A stretch of DNA of 36,673 bases from Escherichia coli (GTDB lineage: Bacteria > Pseudomonadota > Gammaproteobacteria > Enterobacterales > Enterobacteriaceae), in assembly GCF_003334315.1 (NCBI RefSeq), contig NZ_QOWR01000049.1. One strand, 5' to 3'. Below are positions 1 through 10,300 of the stretch, one piece after another. The notes below the pieces were generated by a model that was given only the letters and a program-made list of their open reading frames with translations, was not told the origin of the DNA and did not search any database. A program made the translations under genes and the position numbers. Positions within the stretch are counted from its first letter, which is position 1, and every line of letters starts with the position of its first letter.

Positions 1-310
1 ATTATATCGAATGTGATTACAATCGGTGGCGGCGGCACAGTTGGTGTGGCGGCCTCAGTCCGGAACAATTTGAAAACCAGAACCTCGCTTAGGCCTGTGT
101 CCATATTACGTGGGTAGGATCAACTTTCAAAAGGCTGGAACTGATTGACAGAATTAACGATATAATAGCCAGGTACTTTCCTTCTGTACTCTCAGCCTGA
201 TCCCAAGTGTGATTCCCTTTCGATATCAAAAGGGACTGCGGGTATAATTGAGGGTACATTTTTAATCAAACCAAGTAAATTATATTAATATCAATATGAT
301 AAAAGAAATT

Positions 311-332
311 TTCGATTCCGAGTCCGGCACCA
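311..332 (+). other. Orphan 3'-terminal fragment of tRNA-Phe (T-arm/acceptor 3' strand ending CACCA), no tRNA body upstream; att-like direct repeat
   Basis: ttcgattccgagtccggcacca matches the last ~22 nt of E. coli tRNA-Phe (GGTTCGATTCCGAGTCCGGGCACCA) with one G fewer; the preceding 54 nt are AT-rich non-tRNA sequence. Confidence 0.6.
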
Positions 333-342
333 AATTCATATA

Positions 343-370
343 AACGGACCTCCACGGAGGTCCGTTTTTC
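343..370 (+). terminator. Intrinsic terminator following the tRNA-Phe 3' fragment
   Basis: Inverted repeat acggacctcc / ggaggtccgt followed by TTTTT. Confidence 0.7.
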
Positions 371-948
371 GTTTCAGGACGCCACTATTTAAGCGTTCTG
401 CCTCCAAATCAATTCTCCCGAACTCAACCAGATTCTCCCCACATCACCAGCAATTTGCGGGCATATCCCAATTCGGGAAAATTTGTTCCTGAGCGATAGC
501 ACTAACTGACGTGAAATGTCGTGCGGCCCCGTGATGTTGTTGAACGTCAAATGACGTCATCAGGAGCGTAACGCATCCATAAAGCACAACACCGGTCTGA
601 ACGCCGACTGATGAGATTTTCTGAATGAGAACAAAGAGAAATGTATCAGTCCGCTTGCTCATGCAAAGACTAACAATCCATTAAAATAGTAAGCGCTCCG
701 GACAATTTTCCATGGATTATTTTCTGAACATTTTTCTTTGGCAAAGATGATGAATTTTGATGGTAAGGAATATTACTTCTGGTTCTCAGTAAAATCCTTT
801 CTTAATACCATGTAATCAAGAAGTTTATGGCTGGTAAAAATAACGTCTTGCATTCACCAATAATATGTAAATAAACCCATCTATAGATGGTAAAAATAGG
901 TTGTGGCAATTATCATTGCATCATTCCCTTTTCGAATGAGTTTCTATT

Positions 949-2487
949 ATGCAACAACCTGTAGTTCGCGTTGGCGAATGGCTTGTTACTCCGTCCATAA
1001 ACCAAATTAGCCGCAATGGGCGTCAACTTACCCTTGAGCCGAGATTAATCGATCTTCTGGTTTTCTTTGCTCAACACAGTGGCGAAGTACTTAGCAGGGA
1101 TGAACTTATCGATAATGTCTGGAAGAGAAGTATTGTCACCAATCACGTTGTGACGCAGAGTATCTCAGAACTACGTAAGTCATTAAAAGATAATGATGAA
1201 GATAGTCCTGTCTATATCGCTACTGTACCAAAGCGCGGCTATAAATTAATGGTGCCGGTTATCTGGTACAGCGAAGAAGAGGGAGAGGAAATAATGCTAT
1301 CTTCGCCTCCCCCTATACCAGAGGCGGTTCCTGCCACAGATTCTCCCTCCCACAGTCTTAACATTCAAAACACCGCAACGCCACCTGAACAATCCCCAGT
1401 TAAAAGCAAACGATTCACTACCTTTTGGGTATGGTTTTTTTTCCTGTTGTCGTTAGGTATCTGTGTAGCACTGGTCGCGTTTTCAAGTCTTGATACACGT
1501 CTTCCGATGAGCAAATCGCGTATTTTGCTCAATCCACGCGATATTGACATTAATATGGTAAATAAAAGTTGTAACAGCTGGAGTTCCCCGTATCAGCTCT
1601 CTTACGCGATAGGCGTGGGTGATTTGGTGGCGACATCACTTAACACCTTCTCCACCTTTATGGTGCATGACAAAATCAACTACAACATTGATGAACCGAG
1701 CAGTTCCGGTAAAACATTATCTATTGCGTTTGTTAATCAGCGCCAATACCGTGCTCAACAATGCTTTATGTCGATAAAATTGGTAGACAATGCAGATGGT
1801 TCAACCATGCTGGATAAACGTTATGTCATCACTAACGGTAATCAGCTGGCGATTCAAAATGATTTACTGGAGAGTTTATCAAAAGCGTTAAACCAACCAT
1901 GGCCACAACGAATGCAGGAGACGCTCCAGCAAATTTTGCCTCATCGTGGTGCGTTATTAACTAATTTTTATCAGGCACATGATTATTTACTGCATGGCGA
2001 TGATAAATCATTGAACCGTGCCAGTGAATTATTAGGTGAGATTGTTCAATCATCCCCAGAATTTACCTACGCGAGAGCAGAAAAAGCATTAGTTGATATC
2101 GTGCGCCATTCTCAACATCCTTTAGATGAAAAACAATTAGCAGCACTGAACACAGAAATAGATAACATTGTTACACTACCGGAATTGAATAACCTGTCCA
2201 TTATATATCAAATAAAAGCGGTCAGTGCTCTGGTAAAAGGTAAAACAGATGAGTCTTACCAGGCGATAAATACTGGCATTGATCTTGAAATGTCCTGGCT
2301 AAATTATGTATTGCTTGGCAAGGTTTATGAAATGAAGGGGATGAACCGGGAAGCGGCTGATGCATATCTCACCGCCTTTAATTTACGCCCAGGGGCAAAC
2401 ACCCTTTACTGGATTGAAAATGGTATATTCCAGACTTCTGTTCCTTATGTTGTACCTTATCTCGACAAATTTCTCGCTTCAGAATAA
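949..2487 (+). CDS. cadC: CadC, membrane-integrated ToxR-like pH/lysine-responsive activator of cadBA
   Basis: 512 aa ORF; N-terminal winged-helix DNA-binding domain, single TM segment (FTTFWVWFFFLLSLGICVALVAF), periplasmic sensor domain; sequence recognised as CadC. Confidence 0.95.
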   Translation: MQQPVVRVGEWLVTPSINQISRNGRQLTLEPRLIDLLVFFAQHSGEVLSRDELIDNVWKRSIVTNHVVTQSISELRKSLKDNDEDSPVYIATVPKRGYKLMVPVIWYSEEEGEEIMLSSPPPIPEAVPATDSPSHSLNIQNTATPPEQSPVKSKRFTTFWVWFFFLLSLGICVALVAFSSLDTRLPMSKSRILLNPRDIDINMVNKSCNSWSSPYQLSYAIGVGDLVATSLNTFSTFMVHDKINYNIDEPSSSGKTLSIAFVNQRQYRAQQCFMSIKLVDNADGSTMLDKRYVITNGNQLAIQNDLLESLSKALNQPWPQRMQETLQQILPHRGALLTNFYQAHDYLLHGDDKSLNRASELLGEIVQSSPEFTYARAEKALVDIVRHSQHPLDEKQLAALNTEIDNIVTLPELNNLSIIYQIKAVSALVKGKTDESYQAINTGIDLEMSWLNYVLLGKVYEMKGMNREAADAYLTAFNLRPGANTLYWIENGIFQTSVPYVVPYLDKFLASE

Positions 2488-2562
2488 GTAACTCCCGGGT
2501 TGATTTATGCTCGGCAATATTTGTTGTTGAGTTTTTGTATGTTACTGTTGGTATAATATGTT

Positions 2563-2592
2563 GCGGCAATTTATTTGCCGCATAATTTTTAT
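2563..2592 (+). terminator. cadC intrinsic terminator
   Basis: Palindrome gcggcaa-tttat-ttgccgc followed by a T-rich run, ~75 nt after the cadC stop. Confidence 0.6.
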
Positions 2593-2599
2593 TACATAA

Positions 2600-2852
2600 A
2601 TTTAACCAGAGAATGCCCCGCAATTTATTGTAAACATTGAATGTTTATCTTTTCATGATATCAACTTGCGATCCTGATGTGTTAATAAAAAACCTCAAGT
2701 TCTCACTTACAGAAACTTTTGTGTTATTTCACCTAATCTTTAGGATTAATCCTTTTTTCGTGAGTATTCTTAGCGCCAGTTTGGTCTGGTCAGGAAATAG
2801 TTATACATCATGACCCGGACTCCAAATTCAAAAATGAAATTAGGAGAAGAGC
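2600..2852 (+). promoter_or_regulatory. Pcad promoter / CadC- and H-NS-bound regulatory region upstream of cadBA
   Basis: AT-rich intergenic region between cadC and cadB; position matches the known Pcad region; individual binding sites not resolved by eye. Confidence 0.5.
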
Positions 2853-4187
2853 ATGAGTTCTGCCAAGAAGATCGGGCTATTTGCCTGTACCGGTGTTGTT
2901 GCCGGTAATATGATGGGGAGCGGTATTGCATTATTACCTGCGAACCTAGCAAGTATCGGTGGTATTGCTATCTGGGGTTGGATTATCTCTATTATTGGTG
3001 CAATGTCGCTGGCGTATGTATATGCCCGACTGGCAACAAAAAACCCGCAACAAGGTGGCCCAATTGCTTATGCCGGAGAAATTTCCCCTGCATTTGGTTT
3101 TCAGACAGGTGTTCTTTATTACCATGCTAACTGGATTGGTAACCTGGCGATTGGTATTACCGCTGTATCTTATCTTTCCACCTTCTTCCCAGTATTAAAT
3201 GATCCTGTTCCGGCGGGTATCGCCTGTATTGCTATCGTCTGGGTATTTACCTTTGTAAATATGCTCGGCGGTACTTGGGTAAGCCGTTTAACCACTATTG
3301 GTCTGGTGCTGGTTCTTATTCCTGTGGTGATGACTGCTATTGTTGGCTGGCATTGGTTTGATGCGGCAACTTATGCAGCTAACTGGAATACTGCGGATAC
3401 CACTGATGGTCATGCGATCATTAAAAGTATTCTGCTCTGCCTGTGGGCCTTCGTGGGTGTTGAATCCGCAGCTGTAAGTACTGGTATGGTTAAAAACCCG
3501 AAACGTACCGTTCCGCTGGCAACCATGCTGGGTACTGGTTTAGCAGGTATTGTTTACATCGCTGCGACTCAGGTGCTTTCCGGTATGTATCCGTCTTCTG
3601 TAATGGCGGCTTCCGGTGCTCCGTTTGCAATCAGTGCTTCAACTATCCTCGGTAACTGGGCTGCGCCGCTGGTTTCTGCATTCACCGCCTTTGCGTGCCT
3701 GACTTCTCTGGGCTCCTGGATGATGTTGGTAGGCCAGGCAGGTGTACGTGCCGCTAACGACGGTAACTTCCCGAAAGTTTATGGTGAAGTCGACAGCAAC
3801 GGTATTCCGAAAAAAGGTCTGCTGCTGGCTGCAGTGAAAATGACTGCCCTGATGATCCTTATCACTCTGATGAACTCTGCCGGTGGTAAAGCATCTGACC
3901 TGTTCGGTGAACTGACCGGTATCGCAGTACTGCTGACTATGCTGCCGTATTTCTACTCTTGCGTTGACCTGATTCGTTTTGAAGGCGTTAACATCCGCAA
4001 CTTTGTCAGCCTGATCTGCTCTGTACTGGGTTGCGTGTTCTGCTTCATCGCGCTGATGGGCGCAAGCTCCTTCGAGCTGGCAGGTACCTTCATCGTCAGC
4101 CTGATTATCCTGATGTTCTACGCTCGCAAAATGCACGAGCGCCAGAGCCACTCAATGGATAACCACACCGCGTCTAACGCACATTAA
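2853..4187 (+). CDS. cadB: CadB lysine:cadaverine antiporter (APC superfamily)
   Basis: 444 aa polytopic membrane protein recognised as CadB; paralogous to AdiC at 25853-27190. Confidence 0.95.
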   Translation: MSSAKKIGLFACTGVVAGNMMGSGIALLPANLASIGGIAIWGWIISIIGAMSLAYVYARLATKNPQQGGPIAYAGEISPAFGFQTGVLYYHANWIGNLAIGITAVSYLSTFFPVLNDPVPAGIACIAIVWVFTFVNMLGGTWVSRLTTIGLVLVLIPVVMTAIVGWHWFDAATYAANWNTADTTDGHAIIKSILLCLWAFVGVESAAVSTGMVKNPKRTVPLATMLGTGLAGIVYIAATQVLSGMYPSSVMAASGAPFAISASTILGNWAAPLVSAFTAFACLTSLGSWMMLVGQAGVRAANDGNFPKVYGEVDSNGIPKKGLLLAAVKMTALMILITLMNSAGGKASDLFGELTGIAVLLTMLPYFYSCVDLIRFEGVNIRNFVSLICSVLGCVFCFIALMGASSFELAGTFIVSLIILMFYARKMHERQSHSMDNHTASNAH

Positions 4188-4204
4188 TTAAAAGTATTTT
4201 CCGA

Positions 4205-4250
4205 GGCTCCTCCTTTCATTTTGTCCCATGTGTTGGGAGGGGCCTTTTTT
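4205..4250 (+). terminator. Intercistronic hairpin with U-tract between cadB and cadA (possible partial terminator / processing site)
   Basis: ggctcctcc ... ggaggggcc (9 bp stem with one G-U pair) followed by TTTTTT, immediately upstream of the cadA SD/ATG. Confidence 0.4.
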
Positions 4251-4266
4251 ACCTGGAGATATGACT

Positions 4267-6414
4267 ATGAACGTTATTGCAATATTGAATCACATGGGGG
4301 TTTATTTTAAAGAAGAACCCATCCGTGAACTTCATCGCGCGCTTGAACGTCTGAACTTCCAGATTGTTTACCCGAACGACCGTGACGACTTATTAAAACT
4401 GATCGAAAACAATGCGCGTCTGTGCGGCGTTATTTTTGACTGGGATAAATATAATCTCGAGCTGTGCGAAGAAATTAGCAAAATGAACGAGAACCTGCCG
4501 TTGTACGCGTTCGCTAATACGTATTCCACTCTCGATGTAAGCCTGAATGACCTGCGTTTACAGATTAGCTTCTTTGAATATGCGCTGGGTGCTGCTGAAG
4601 ATATTGCTAATAAGATCAAGCAGACCACTGACGAATATATCAACACTATTCTGCCTCCGCTGACTAAAGCACTGTTTAAATATGTTCGTGAAGGTAAATA
4701 TACTTTCTGTACTCCTGGTCACATGGGCGGTACTGCATTCCAGAAAAGCCCGGTAGGTAGCCTGTTCTATGATTTCTTTGGTCCGAATACCATGAAATCT
4801 GATATTTCCATTTCAGTATCTGAACTGGGTTCTCTGCTGGATCACAGTGGTCCACACAAAGAAGCAGAACAGTATATCGCTCGCGTCTTTAACGCAGACC
4901 GCAGCTACATGGTGACCAACGGTACTTCCACTGCGAACAAAATTGTTGGTATGTACTCTGCTCCAGCAGGCAGCACCATTCTGATTGACCGTAACTGCCA
5001 CAAATCGCTGACCCACCTGATGATGATGAGCGATGTTACGCCAATCTATTTCCGCCCGACCCGTAACGCTTACGGTATTCTTGGTGGTATCCCACAGAGT
5101 GAATTCCAGCACGCTACCATTGCTAAGCGCGTGAAAGAAACACCAAACGCAACCTGGCCGGTACATGCTGTAATTACCAACTCTACCTATGATGGTCTGC
5201 TGTACAACACCGACTTCATCAAGAAAACACTGGATGTGAAATCCATCCACTTTGACTCCGCGTGGGTGCCTTACACCAACTTCTCACCGATTTACGAAGG
5301 TAAATGCGGTATGAGCGGTGGCCGTGTAGAAGGGAAAGTGATTTACGAAACCCAGTCCACTCACAAACTGCTGGCGGCGTTCTCTCAGGCTTCCATGATC
5401 CACGTTAAAGGTGACGTAAACGAAGAAACCTTTAACGAAGCCTACATGATGCACACCACCACTTCTCCGCACTACGGTATCGTGGCGTCCACTGAAACCG
5501 CTGCGGCGATGATGAAAGGCAATGCAGGTAAGCGTCTGATCAACGGTTCCATTGAACGTGCGATCAAATTCCGTAAAGAGATCAAACGTCTGAGAACGGA
5601 ATCTGATGGCTGGTTCTTTGATGTTTGGCAGCCGGATCATATCGATACGACTGAATGCTGGCCGCTGCGTTCTGACAGCACCTGGCACGGCTTCAAAAAC
5701 ATCGATAACGAGCACATGTATCTTGACCCGATCAAAGTCACCCTGCTGACTCCGGGGATGGAAAAAGACGGCACCATGAGCGACTTTGGTATTCCGGCCA
5801 GCATCGTGGCGAAATACCTCGACGAACATGGCATCGTTGTTGAGAAAACCGGTCCGTATAACCTGCTGTTCCTGTTCAGCATCGGTATCGATAAGACCAA
5901 AGCACTGAGCCTGCTGCGTGCTCTGACTGACTTCAAACGTGCGTTCGACCTGAACCTGCGTGTGAAAAACATGCTGCCGTCTCTGTATCGTGAAGATCCT
6001 GAATTCTATGAAAACATGCGTATTCAGGAACTGGCTCAAAATATCCACAAACTGATTGTTCACCACAATCTGCCGGATCTGATGTATCGCGCATTTGAAG
6101 TGCTGCCGACGATGGTAATGACTCCGTATGCTGCGTTCCAGAAAGAGCTGCACGGTATGACCGAAGAAGTTTACCTCGACGAAATGGTAGGTCGTATTAA
6201 CGCCAATATGATCCTTCCGTATCCGCCGGGAGTTCCTCTGGTAATGCCGGGTGAAATGATCACCGAAGAAAGCCGTCCGGTTCTGGAGTTCCTGCAGATG
6301 CTGTGTGAAATCGGCGCTCACTATCCGGGCTTTGAAACCGATATTCACGGTGCATACCGTCAGGCTGATGGCCGCTATACCGTTAAGGTATTGAAAGAAG
6401 AAAGCAAAAAATAA
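4267..6414 (+). CDS. cadA: CadA inducible lysine decarboxylase (PLP-dependent, fold type I)
   Basis: 715 aa from MNVIAILNHMGVYF...; the ORF-track start at 4228 is an upstream in-frame extension; internal ATG at 4267 has GGAG spaced upstream; ends ...VKVLKEESKK. Confidence 0.95.
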   Translation: MNVIAILNHMGVYFKEEPIRELHRALERLNFQIVYPNDRDDLLKLIENNARLCGVIFDWDKYNLELCEEISKMNENLPLYAFANTYSTLDVSLNDLRLQISFFEYALGAAEDIANKIKQTTDEYINTILPPLTKALFKYVREGKYTFCTPGHMGGTAFQKSPVGSLFYDFFGPNTMKSDISISVSELGSLLDHSGPHKEAEQYIARVFNADRSYMVTNGTSTANKIVGMYSAPAGSTILIDRNCHKSLTHLMMMSDVTPIYFRPTRNAYGILGGIPQSEFQHATIAKRVKETPNATWPVHAVITNSTYDGLLYNTDFIKKTLDVKSIHFDSAWVPYTNFSPIYEGKCGMSGGRVEGKVIYETQSTHKLLAAFSQASMIHVKGDVNEETFNEAYMMHTTTSPHYGIVASTETAAAMMKGNAGKRLINGSIERAIKFRKEIKRLRTESDGWFFDVWQPDHIDTTECWPLRSDSTWHGFKNIDNEHMYLDPIKVTLLTPGMEKDGTMSDFGIPASIVAKYLDEHGIVVEKTGPYNLLFLFSIGIDKTKALSLLRALTDFKRAFDLNLRVKNMLPSLYREDPEFYENMRIQELAQNIHKLIVHHNLPDLMYRAFEVLPTMVMTPYAAFQKELHGMTEEVYLDEMVGRINANMILPYPPGVPLVMPGEMITEESRPVLEFLQMLCEIGAHYPGFETDIHGAYRQADGRYTVKVLKEESKK

Positions 6415-6427
6415 TTAGCTCGTACAA

Positions 6428-6455
6428 GGGAAGTGGCTTGCCACTTCCCTTTTTT
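6428..6455 (+). terminator. cadBA intrinsic terminator
   Basis: gggaagtgg-cttg-ccacttccc followed by TTTTTT, 14 nt after the cadA stop. Confidence 0.8.
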
Positions 6456-6472
6456 GCTCATAAGGAGAACAC

Positions 6473-7930
6473 ATGAAAACACCCTCACAGCCGCGCGCGA
6501 TATACTATATCGTGGCGATCCAAATCTGGGAGTACTTCAGTTTTTACGGCATGCGTGCCTTACTCATTCTCTATCTCACCCATCAGCTTGGTTTTGATGA
6601 TAACCATGCCATCAGCCTGTTCAGCGCATATGCTTCTCTGGTTTACGTTACCCCTATTCTCGGCGGCTGGCTTGCCGACCGCCTGCTCGGCAACCGCACT
6701 GCAGTGATTGCCGGCGCGCTGTTAATGACCCTTGGCCATGTGGTGCTGGGTATTGATACAAATTCAACCTTTAGCCTGTATCTGGCGCTGGCAATCATTA
6801 TTTGTGGCTACGGTTTATTCAAATCAAACATCAGCTGTTTGCTTGGCGAGCTCTACGACGAGAACGATCATCGACGTGATGGCGGTTTTTCGCTGCTGTA
6901 TGCTGCGGGCAATATCGGTTCTATCGCCGCCCCAATCGCCTGCGGCCTGGCTGCTCAGTGGTATGGATGGCATGTTGGCTTTGCCCTTGCGGGTGGCGGC
7001 ATGTTTATCGGTTTGTTGATTTTCTTAAGCGGGCATCGTCATTTCCAGTCCACGCGTAGTATGGATAAAAAAGCGCTCACTAGCGTGAAATTTGCCTTAC
7101 CGGTATGGAGCTGGTTAGTGGTGATGCTCTGTTTAGCCCCAGTATTTTTTACCCTGCTGCTGGAGAACGACTGGTCCGGATATTTGCTGGCGATCGTTTG
7201 CCTCATTGCCGCACAAATCATTGCCCGCATGATGGTCAAATTCCCCGAACACCGCCGTGCTCTTTGGCAAATTGTATTGTTGATGTTTGTCGGGACATTG
7301 TTCTGGGTACTGGCACAACAGGGCGGCAGTACCATCAGCTTGTTTATCGATCGCTTTGTGAATCGTCAGGCATTCAATATTGAAGTACCTACAGCACTAT
7401 TCCAGTCGGTGAATGCAATTGCGGTGATGCTCGCTGGGGTTGTACTGGCCTGGCTGGCGTCGCCAGAAAGCCGCGGCAACTCAACATTGCGCGTCTGGCT
7501 GAAGTTTGCCTTTGGCTTACTGCTGATGGCTTGTGGCTTTATGTTGTTGGCATTTGATGCCCGACATGCAGCGGCTGACGGTCAAGCGTCAATGGGCGTG
7601 ATGATATCCGGGTTGGCGCTAATGGGCTTTGCCGAACTCTTTATTGACCCGGTGGCGATTGCGCAAATCACGCGTCTGAAAATGTCTGGCGTATTAACCG
7701 GGATTTATATGCTGGCAACAGGCGCGGTCGCCAACTGGCTGGCAGGCGTAGTGGCACAGCAGACGACAGAGTCGCAAATTAGCGGTATGGCAATTGCAGC
7801 TTACCAGCGATTCTTTTCTCAGATGGGAGAGTGGACGTTGGCTTGTGTCGCGATCATCGTCGTATTGGCCTTTGCTACCCGTTTTCTGTTTAGCACGCCG
7901 ACGAATATGATACAGGAGAGTAACGATTAA
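6473..7930 (+). CDS. dtpC: DtpC (YjdL) proton-dependent di/tripeptide permease, POT/PTR2 family
   Basis: 485 aa polytopic membrane protein recognised as YjdL/DtpC; AAGGAG SD upstream. Confidence 0.9.
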
Positions 7931-8166
7931 CTGTCGTAAAAACAATTGGTTATGAATAAATTAACTTTCAGTTTATCACACTAGTAAATCGAGATTAATA
8001 AGTCATTTAAACCATTTTGATGGTTATTTATTAGTGATATCAACTTGAGGTAAGCGTTAGTTTCGATAAGATAAACTGAGTTATTAATAGTCGAGGCAGA
8101 TAATACAGTGTACCGATCTGTCTCTTTATCTACGCTAAATTGAAAGCTGGATTTAGAGGAACCAAA

Positions 8167-9684
8167 ATGTCTGAACAAGAAACACGGGGAGCCAATGAGG
8201 CTATTGATTTTAACGATGAACTGAGAAATCGCCGCGAAAAACTGGCGGCACTACGTCAGCAAGGTGTGGCGTTTCCCAATGATTTTCGCCGCGACCATAC
8301 CTCTGACCAGTTGCACGAAGAGTTTGATGCGAAGGATAACCAGGAACTGGAATCCTTAAACATTGAAGTCTCGGTTGCTGGCCGAATGATGACCCGTCGT
8401 ATCATGGGGAAAGCCTCCTTTGTAACGTTGCAGGATGTCGGTGGCCGTATTCAACTGTACGTTGCACGAGATAGCCTGCCAGAAGGTGTTTATAACGATC
8501 AGTTTAAAAAATGGGATCTGGGTGACATTATCGGTGCCCGCGGTACGCTGTTTAAGACGCAAACGGGTGAGCTTTCCATTCACTGTACTGAGCTGCGCCT
8601 GCTGACTAAAGCACTACGTCCTTTACCAGATAAATTCCATGGTCTGCAGGATCAGGAAGTCCGTTATCGTCAACGTTATCTGGACCTCATCGCTAACGAT
8701 AAATCCCGTCAAACGTTTGTTGTCCGTTCAAAAATTCTGGCCGCTATCCGTCAATTCATGGTCGCGCGCGGCTTTATGGAAGTAGAAACCCCGATGATGC
8801 AGGTAATTCCAGGTGGGGCATCTGCTCGCCCGTTTATTACCCATCATAATGCTCTGGATTTAGATATGTATCTGCGTATCGCGCCGGAGCTGTATCTGAA
8901 ACGTCTGGTTGTAGGCGGTTTTGAACGGGTATTCGAAATCAACCGTAACTTCCGTAATGAAGGTATTTCTGTTCGCCATAATCCTGAGTTCACAATGATG
9001 GAACTCTACATGGCGTATGCGGATTACCACGATTTGATTGAACTGACAGAGTCACTGTTCCGCACCCTGGCACAAGAGGTTCTGGGTACCACTAAAGTCA
9101 CTTATGGCGAGCATGTGTTTGATTTCGGCAAACCGTTTGAAAAACTCACCATGCGCGAAGCAATCAAAAAATATCGTCCAGAAACCGATATGGCCGACCT
9201 GGATAATTTTGATGCTGCTAAAGCATTAGCTGAATCTATCGGTATTACGGTAGAGAAAAGCTGGGGGTTGGGACGTATTGTCACAGAGATCTTTGATGAA
9301 GTGGCAGAAGCACATCTGATTCAGCCAACCTTTATTACGGAATATCCGGCAGAAGTGTCCCCGCTGGCACGCCGTAATGATGTTAACCCGGAAATCACCG
9401 ACCGTTTTGAATTCTTCATCGGTGGTCGTGAAATCGGTAATGGTTTTAGCGAATTAAACGACGCAGAAGATCAGGCTGAACGTTTCCAGGAACAGGTTAA
9501 TGCTAAAGCTGCAGGTGACGACGAAGCCATGTTCTATGACGAAGATTACGTGACTGCGCTGGAATATGGTCTGCCGCCAACCGCTGGTCTGGGTATTGGT
9601 ATCGACCGAATGATTATGCTGTTTACTAACAGCCATACTATTCGCGACGTTATTCTCTTCCCGGCGATGCGCCCACAGAAATAA
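8167..9684 (+). CDS. lysU: LysU, inducible lysyl-tRNA synthetase (class II)
   Basis: 505 aa from [40 protein letters not shown] (the LysU-type N-terminus); the ORF-track start at 8140 is an upstream extension. Confidence 0.93.
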
Positions 9685-9696
9685 ATTTCACTTTAA

Positions 9697-9728
9697 TGAA
9701 CGAAGCAGTCAGGCGACTGCTTCGTTCA
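9697..9728. terminator. Perfect 13-bp stem-loop between convergent lysU and ghoT (probable bidirectional terminator)
   Basis: gaacgaagcagtc-aggc-gactgcttcgttc; A/T-rich flank on the ghoT side. Confidence 0.55.
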
Positions 9729-9802
9729 TCGTTCCGCAAATCCAGTTTTGAGGAGAGACGCTTCGTTTCACGATAACCAGCGGGTCCACTCAACTACAGC
9801 TC

Positions 9803-9976
9803 CTAAAAGAGAGAAAAAAGTAATGCCACAGGCAGACTCATTGGCCAGGTTATTCCGACCAGGAATGCACTAAGTAAACGAATATGTGTTTTCTCATGTG
9901 AGATAAACCAGATAATGACAAAGGATATGTTCACACCAATCACATAAAAAATTAATATTTTAGAGAATAGTGCCAT
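9803..9976 (-). CDS. ghoT: GhoT, small membrane-lytic toxin of the type V toxin-antitoxin system
   Basis: Hand-translated 57 aa ORF MALFSKILIFYVIGVNISFVIIWFISHEKTHIRLLSAFLVGITWPMSLPVALLFSLF (below the 60-aa ORF-track cutoff); two hydrophobic helices; 27 nt downstream of ghoS. Confidence 0.8.
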   Translation of the reverse strand: MALFSKILIFYVIGVNISFVIIWFISHEKTHIRLLSAFLVGITWPMSLPVALLFSLF

Positions 9977-10003
9977 TTTTTATGTTCTTCTTATCCTTCC
10001 TGG

Positions 10004-10300
10004 CTACTTGTAAAACTGACGGAAATAGTCATCAACTGTCATAATGTTGAGGTCAAAATCAATATCCGGTAAGTCTAAGCATTTGAGCCTGATTAAATCT
10101 TCGATTTCACTTGCGGCTAACGATGTCGTTATTGCGAAGGAGTTTTCATTCAATTGTCGTGGTATCCCATATTCATCAGCCACGATAGAAGAGAAATTCA
10201 TATCATACATCAATGATCTTAACCTTAAGAACACTGAGGAATAAGATGATGGATAATCAAAAGAAACAACATAAGTATTGAACTTGTTTTTACCTTCCAT
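10004..10300 (-). CDS. ghoS: GhoS, antitoxin endoribonuclease of the type V TA system
   Basis: 98 aa ORF recognised as GhoS (YjdK), immediately upstream of and co-oriented with ghoT. Confidence 0.88.
   Translation of the reverse strand: MEGKNKFNTYVVSFDYPSSYSSVFLRLRSLMYDMNFSSIVADEYGIPRQLNENSFAITTSLAASEIEDLIRLKCLDLPDIDFDLNIMTVDDYFRQFYK

Follow-up and report, generated by a model that had tools for sequence, protein, structure and literature searches.

The 22 nucleotides at positions 311–332 are very probably the attR core of a genomic island that has entered the tRNA-Phe gene pheU of Escherichia coli at its 3' end; attR is the right-hand junction of such an island. They lie near the left end of the analysed DNA, a stretch of 36,673 nucleotides that is here called the window. 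They constitute the distal repeat of islands of the GI-pheU type, which belong to the P4-type integrase family. The features around the junction are collected in Table 1.

Table 1. Features at the left end of the window, in order from the IS3 end to the first intact core gene.
Feature	Positions	Strand	Basis
Right (3') end of IS3: last 29 codons of orfB and terminal inverted repeat	1..122	+	Match to the e14 IS3 of K-12; RefSeq annotation
Last 25 codons and stop of the terminal island gene (DUF4942), cut by IS3	123..200	+	Translation; protein of HCP6S3_I2
AT-rich non-coding right arm of the island, ~30% GC; attP-derived side of the probable attR	201..310	+	Absent from K-12, kept in relatives
Probable attR core: orphan tRNA-Phe 3' end (23 nt minus one G)	311..332	+	Match to K-12 pheU; published attR strings
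Intrinsic-terminator-like hairpin and T tract	342..375	+	Same as behind the intact pheU of K-12
Relic leader/promoter region of an ancient P4-like integrase, common to K-12	376..495	+	Similarity to attL in HCP6S3_I2
yjdQ' integrase fossil	496..688	+	tblastn with the live integrase; K-12 and RefSeq annotation
cadC, the nearest intact core gene on the right	949..2487	+	Gene annotation; colinearity with K-12

A tRNA-Phe 3' end without a tRNA body

The sequence at 311–332 is TTCGATTCCGAGTCCGGCACCA, and this 22-mer occurs only once in the window. The full sequence of pheU in K-12 is GCCCGGATAGCTCAGTCGGTAGAGCAGGGGATTGAAAATCCCCGTGTCCTTGGTTCGATTCCGAGTCCGGGCACCA, and its 3' end reads ...GGTTCGATTCCGAGTCCGGGCACCA. 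Compared with this gene, 311–332 (TTCGATTCCGAGTCCGG-CACCA) corresponds to the final 23 nt, except that one G of the GGG run is absent. No tRNA body is present in the window, because neither ARAGORN (0 tRNA genes in the whole 36.7 kb) nor an Rfam search of the window finds a tRNA. Instead of a complete cloverleaf, only the 3' half of the T-arm and the 3' strand of the acceptor stem are seen at 311–332. The 54 nt on the 5' side of the repeat (257–310) have a GC content of 14.8% and cannot be aligned to a tRNA body. The fragment is without coding or RNA function. Its sole role is that of a substrate for excision of the island, should such excision occur at present.

Downstream from the repeat, a hairpin is formed by 342–367, with a perfect stem of 11–12 bp that includes 6 GC pairs, and it is followed by TTCGTTTC. 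A folding energy of −20.5 kcal/mol (z = −2.9) is computed for it. A GC-rich hairpin with a T tract is predicted, based on the sequence, to be an intrinsic (Rho-independent) terminator, and the hairpin is base-for-base the same as the one located 3' of the intact pheU in K-12. The distance from the CCA end to the start codon of cadC is 617 nt both in the window and in K-12. In its present position, the terminator would keep transcripts that leave the island from running into cadC. A scan of 1–1000 for repeats that could be arm sites of the integrase gave, beyond the terminator stem, just short pairs at the level of chance.

An earlier note on this DNA had described 311–332 as the end of tRNA-Phe with one G fewer, followed by a hairpin/T-run terminator and preceded by 54 nt of AT-rich, non-tRNA sequence. 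All three descriptions agree with the comparisons above. It can be asked whether the 22-mer resembles tRNA-Phe by chance, or whether an assembler made a chimeric join here, as the window starts in an IS3 repeat, which is typical of the ends of draft contigs. Both are extremely improbable. In 100 dinucleotide-preserving shuffles, 0 matches to the 22-mer were seen with up to 3 mismatches, and the same junction exists in hundreds of independently closed genomes.

The junction in other genomes

The closest complete genomes are those of strains HCP6S3_I2 (pig, UK) and 210221272 (swine, USA), for which an identity of 100.0% is reported over window positions 119–20000. Between HCP6S3_I2 and the window, 6 substitutions and 2 one-base indels are seen over 119–20999. 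Both genomes have the same order: dicD, intact pheU, a 420-aa integrase, cargo, an end module (antirestriction/RadC/YeeU-CbtA/DUF957/DUF4942), the 22-nt repeat, the terminator, yjdQ' and cadC. Three domains, Arm-DNA-bind_3, Phage_int_M and Phage_integrase, give the integrase a P4-type architecture. The proximal end of the island, an intact tRNA-Phe gene with an adjacent P4-type integrase, is thus found in each of the two closest complete genomes; that of the source strain would lie outside the window. From pheU to the identical junction, the island measures 38.9 kb in HCP6S3_I2 and 34.3 kb in 210221272. That islands of 34–39 kb in the nearest relatives end at this very junction bears out the earlier proposal of a distal att junction of an element at pheU.

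The empty site is also seen. An uninterrupted site of the K-12 type, in which dicD, pheU and yjdQ' are contiguous, is present in 3,722 of the 5,426 complete genomes; the intact pheU that the earlier note had placed at this position in K-12 is there in the K-12 sequence as well as in these genomes. The remaining ~1,700 genomes (~31%) do not have one uninterrupted pheU site. Among the split-site rows that were sampled, the matches begin at the TTCGA base (query position 207) in eight of eight, and the site that is contiguous in other strains is broken at the att core. The stretch composed of the DUF4942 end, attR and cadC is common to 1,043 complete genomes. The 51-nt junction (290–340) is found in 1,731 genomes, always on chromosomes. 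The rows listed are a few dozen among several thousand matching records in the searches for the junction and the site. None among the matches listed or sampled has 123–310 as an ordinary core flank with an intact pheU directly upstream. Most likely, the junction was inherited in this lineage rather than newly made.

These comparisons also bear on another origin of the fragment, in which no island was ever inserted. The 5' two thirds of pheU could have been deleted, for example by an IS, and unrelated DNA joined to the stub. The end of IS3 is just 189 bp off, as such an event might leave it, but the breakpoint itself is 188 bp to the right of the IS3 end, at the very base from which the occupied site starts in each of the eight samples. 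Moreover, 123–310 belongs to a known island module, of which it forms the conserved end (DUF4942 with its non-coding arm); this end stands beside attR in 1,043 genomes, and the stub is identical to a published attR, the missing G included. A simple deletion of pheU is therefore highly improbable.

Integration of an island remains the preferred reading, and its steps can be outlined as follows. P4-type tyrosine integrases use an attP that carries a copy of a tRNA 3' end, and recombination with attB restores the tRNA at attL. Here, the tRNA-Phe copy in attP of the island would be an imperfect one, covering the last 23 nt and having GG in place of GGG. A P4-type tyrosine integrase would catalyse recombination between this attP and the 3' end of the chromosomal pheU (attB). 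A complete pheU would be rebuilt at the left end (attL) beside the integrase, with its 3' sequence derived from the island. The displaced partial copy would stay at attR, joined to the old terminator of pheU, the yjdQ' fossil and cadC. Later, a copy of IS3 would have been inserted inside DUF4942, the last gene of the island. Consistent with this outline, attL has GGG followed by downstream sequence of the island type, and attR has GG followed by the chromosomal terminator, yjdQ' and cadC.

DNA on the two sides of the repeat

The leftmost 122 nucleotides come from a copy of IS3, of which they form the right end. They are identical to the IS3 copy in e14 of K-12 (1258 bp) at 121 of 122 nt. Both the terminal inverted repeat (IRR), which ends ...GGGTAGGATCA at position 122, and the C-terminus of orfB, encoded at 3–92 in reading frame 3 and ending ...YIECDYNRWRRHSWCGGLSPEQFENQNLA before the stop codon, assign the sequence to IS3. 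The right end alone lies in the window. In RefSeq, the matches to this end are labelled "IS3-like element IS3 family transposase" in 3,990 genomes.

The island itself occupies only 123–310 (188 bases) in the window, so that IS3 lies ~188–189 bp to the left of the repeat. The translation of 123–200 is TFKRLELIDRINDIIARYFPSVLSA, followed by a stop codon, and corresponds to the C-terminus of an intact 280-aa DUF4942 protein of strain HCP6S3_I2. The similarity to the intact DUF4942 gene ends at the boundary with IS3. In the intact gene, the part located 5' of the insertion point ends ...CACATCACT, and the left end of IS3 is TGATCTTACCCAGCAATAGTGG.... Because the C-terminus of DUF4942 abuts the end of IS3, IS3 was inserted into the last gene of the island or caused a deletion up to it. 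The arm at 201–310 is missing from K-12 and identical in HCP6S3_I2 and 210221272. It is kept, with variation, in other genomes that have an island ending with DUF4942 at pheU.

The DNA directly inside the repeat has a GC content of 34%, compared with 48.8% for the core, as is expected of island DNA. The earlier note had suggested this comparison of GC content, as well as an alignment against K-12 and strains with islands at pheU. Both point the same way, since homology to K-12 starts at 311 and 123–310 is island DNA in the relatives. The note had regarded 1–310 as the end of a single element; this holds for 123–310, and 1–122 belongs instead to IS3. The novel cargo that the note had hoped for in this element is not in the window, where the part at 1–310 consists of the IS3 end, the C-terminus of DUF4942 and the non-coding arm.

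None among the matches listed has IS3 at this position, the search covering 5,426 complete E. coli genomes, and the best matches to 1–1000 all start at 119. An origin of the IS3 copy from within the island of a relative was considered and rejected, as window positions 1–118 have no match in the island of 210221272, whose copies of IS3-family elements are different elements. Since IS3 at this spot is unseen in complete genomes and abuts the last 188 bp of the island, a partial deletion or rearrangement is conceivable, and the island in the source strain may be partly deleted or rearranged at IS3. In the extreme case, the junction would be a relic. The island would have been integrated, and IS3 would then have deleted, inverted or transposed away most of it, so that neither integrase, cargo nor pheU would be found directly to the left. 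IS3-family elements promote adjacent deletions. The end of IS3 at 122, which truncates DUF4942 at a spot occupied by IS3 in none of the matches listed, could be explained in this way, and related pheU islands are full of IS copies and partial transposases. Nevertheless, simple insertion explains the data equally well, with a precise IS3 end after which the island sequence resumes in register, and the closest relatives retain full islands of 34–39 kb. A relic is thus rather unlikely, and the island in this strain would be complete if IS3 was simply inserted. Simple insertion is distinguishable from IS3-mediated deletion or rearrangement only by the left junction of IS3, at which a 3-bp ACT target duplication would be present or absent.

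The start of the window inside a multi-copy IS suggests that it coincides with a contig break of the draft assembly at IS3. Contigs assembled from short reads break at multi-copy repeats such as the 1.26-kb IS3. Extension of the contig across this repeat is probably not possible.

On the right side, the match to K-12 sets in at precisely position 311, within pheU. From there to the end of the window (311–36673), the sequence aligns colinearly with that of K-12; 155 substitutions and 4 one-base indels leave an identity of 99.56%. The colinear part runs from the interior of pheU through cadCBA, dtpC, lysU, ghoST, dcuSR, dcuB, fumB, melAB, adiAYC, eptA-basRS, proP and rdcAB to yjdM.

The earlier note had taken this side as the original flank with cadC. 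This flank is not pristine core, as it holds yjdQ'. The fossil was delimited by a tblastn search of 1–1000 of the window, the query being the live integrase from a related island at pheU. Three pieces were obtained: codons 1–11 at 496–528, with the start codon mutated to ATA, codons ~359–391 at 530–613, and codons 397–420 at 615–686. The fossil is internally deleted and frameshifted, and contains an internal stop. In K-12, yjdQ' (b4654) is annotated as a pseudogene, and in RefSeq genomes as a partial tyrosine recombinase. It is the same fossil at the same place in K-12 and the window. The presence of an integrase fossil beside pheU indicates that an older P4-like element was inserted there, decayed, and was fixed before the present island arrived. 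yjdQ' is thus no part of the newer island but what is left of an older insertion at pheU that was fixed in E. coli. At 311–465, the sequence shares 92% identity with the part of attL of HCP6S3_I2 that begins in the 3' end of pheU and extends into the DNA preceding the live integrase. Because of the yjdQ' relic, the similarity between attL and attR in island-bearing strains extends beyond the 22 nt to ~155 nt at ~92%, covering the terminator and the integrase leader.

Some observations concern the core genes farther to the right. melB (18095–19515, minus strand) has a one-base deletion at 19064, where a run of seven A is shortened to six, and it is split into ORFs of 161 aa and 312 aa. No other gene in the window is broken when compared with K-12 and the nearest relatives. 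A single JGI metagenome contig of 8.4 kb (sample 3300076537), which covers adiC-melB, encodes the identical truncated 161-aa MelB product. Because the same truncated MelB is seen in a metagenome, the frameshift may be a real allele rather than a sequencing error in a homopolymer. At 30672–30837 (minus strand), the 3' end of basS and the small gene pmrR are overlapped by a full-length match (178 bits) to the enterobacterial sRNA STnc630, a feature that is already known and is conserved in K-12. At the right end, 36496–36673 consists of tandem units of ~100 nt that match Rfam naRNA4, a nucleoid-associated RNA of the REP/BIME type, and run off the end of the window. The yjdM-yjdN intergenic region of K-12 contains at least five to six copies of naRNA4.

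Known islands at tRNA-Phe genes and the missing G

An attR identical to the fragment has been published. The string TTCGATTCCGAGTCCGG-CACCA is listed as attR of GI-pheV in Table 1 of PMC11537424, for strains including APEC O1, S88, ED1a, H10407, 12009, 55989, 536 and REL606. According to PMC6174562, a 22-bp direct repeat of the tRNA gene, shifted by one base compared with K-12, terminates insertions at pheU and at pheV alike. As the attR repeat, missing G included, is already printed for islands at pheV and pheU, the junction is already known, an ordinary published feature that the earlier note recognised correctly.

The note had also called pheU and pheV recurrent hot spots of island insertion, in line with the literature (PMC7545054; PMC11537424; PMC6174562). 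Insertions at pheU include PAI-CFT073-pheU, LEE variants, SHI-3 of Shigella boydii, and ICEEc2 (PMC7545054; PMC11537424). The island in question uses the same attachment site as the named pheU islands PAI-CFT073-pheU, LEE variants and SHI-3, and the same principle of duplication of the tRNA 3' end (PMC7545054). GI-pheV and GI-pheU carry intP4 and, at the right end, a "yee module" with antirestriction, RadC, YeeU/CbtA and DUF4942 (PMC11537424; PMC6174562). The likeness to these islands consists of the attR string, the terminal DUF4942 module and the tRNA-Phe target, and in the nearest relatives it extends to the left end, where the tRNA is followed by a P4-type integrase. Unlike GI-pheV, the site here is pheU beside cadC, the last gene is cut by IS3, and the body of the island lies outside the window.

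CP4-6, CP4-44 and CP4-57 of K-12, as well as phage P4, have an Arm-DNA-bind_3 integrase beside a tRNA or tmRNA gene, as in the island of the relatives. The CP4 prophages and P4 use other attachment genes, namely thrW and ssrA, and leuX for P4 itself. In line with a remark in PMC11537424, the CP4 cryptic prophages also have a right module resembling YeeU/CbtA/DUF4942, with a short repeat of the tRNA 3' end at the far boundary.

The GG variant accompanies the family of islands that end with DUF4942 (L009–L011 among the sampled occupied sites). L008 is a different type of pheU island with a RelE/ParE gene at its end, and its repeat is TTTCATTCCGAGTCCGGGCACCA, with GGG and a length of 19–20 nt. 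A third type is an element bearing ParA at pheU in E. coli A41 (L012, 271–349), with a tRNA-Phe repeat of 49 nt that is labelled "tRNA-OTHER" in RefSeq. In all, three or more att types make use of the pheU site. The missing G is characteristic of the island family and already in the literature; it is not a private mutation.

In HCP6S3_I2 and 210221272, attL contains ATATCAACGG and attR contains the K-12-like ATATAAACGG. Bracketing of the crossover between the G run and the SNP that separates attL from attR was attempted and dropped. In two other genomes, L009 and L011, attR has C at this SNP, which therefore does not separate island from chromosome cleanly. GG is found on the attR side in every case and accompanies the island family, at pheU as well as at pheV. 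This suggests that GG was borne by attP and that strand exchange took place 3' of the G run, although selection for a functional tRNA at attL could cause the same pattern of GG and GGG. Imperfect repeats are associated with a lower frequency of excision (PMC11537424), and with its mismatched repeats this type of island is probably fairly stable.

The islands of both relatives contain a Yeh-like fimbrial operon and Phd/Doc. Only HCP6S3_I2 has a MADS-type defence cluster, SNF2, AIPR/Abi and a methyltransferase, and only 210221272 (L005) has a restriction endonuclease, a DUF262 protein, an H-NS paralogue and several IS. The cluster of HCP6S3_I2 (L003, 39600–50000, and L001, 1–1757) encodes a DEAD/DEAH helicase, a DNA methyltransferase, AIPR, Abi and an SNF2-related protein, and includes a gene annotated as methylation-associated defence system MAD1. 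As the cargo differs between nearly identical core backgrounds, a fast turnover of defence genes in these islands is indicated. Such cargo, with its fimbrial operon, Phd/Doc and restriction/defence genes, differs from classical virulence cargo, and none of the pap, LEE and aerobactin genes is found in the annotated pheU islands of the nearest relatives. It is distinctly unlikely that the island of the source strain, beyond IS3 and outside the window, carries cargo not yet described; the content of the window is neutral on this point.

The finding matters mainly for correct annotation. Position 311 is the boundary between accessory DNA (1–310) and the core genome, and at the junction there is neither a tRNA nor an integrase gene to call. 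With its occupied pheU site, the source strain resembles roughly one third of E. coli. The region is a textbook case of layered reuse of a hotspot, with IS3 in a young island and the island beside yjdQ', an older fossil integrase. Each of these layers, IS3, the island and yjdQ', is already documented for E. coli.
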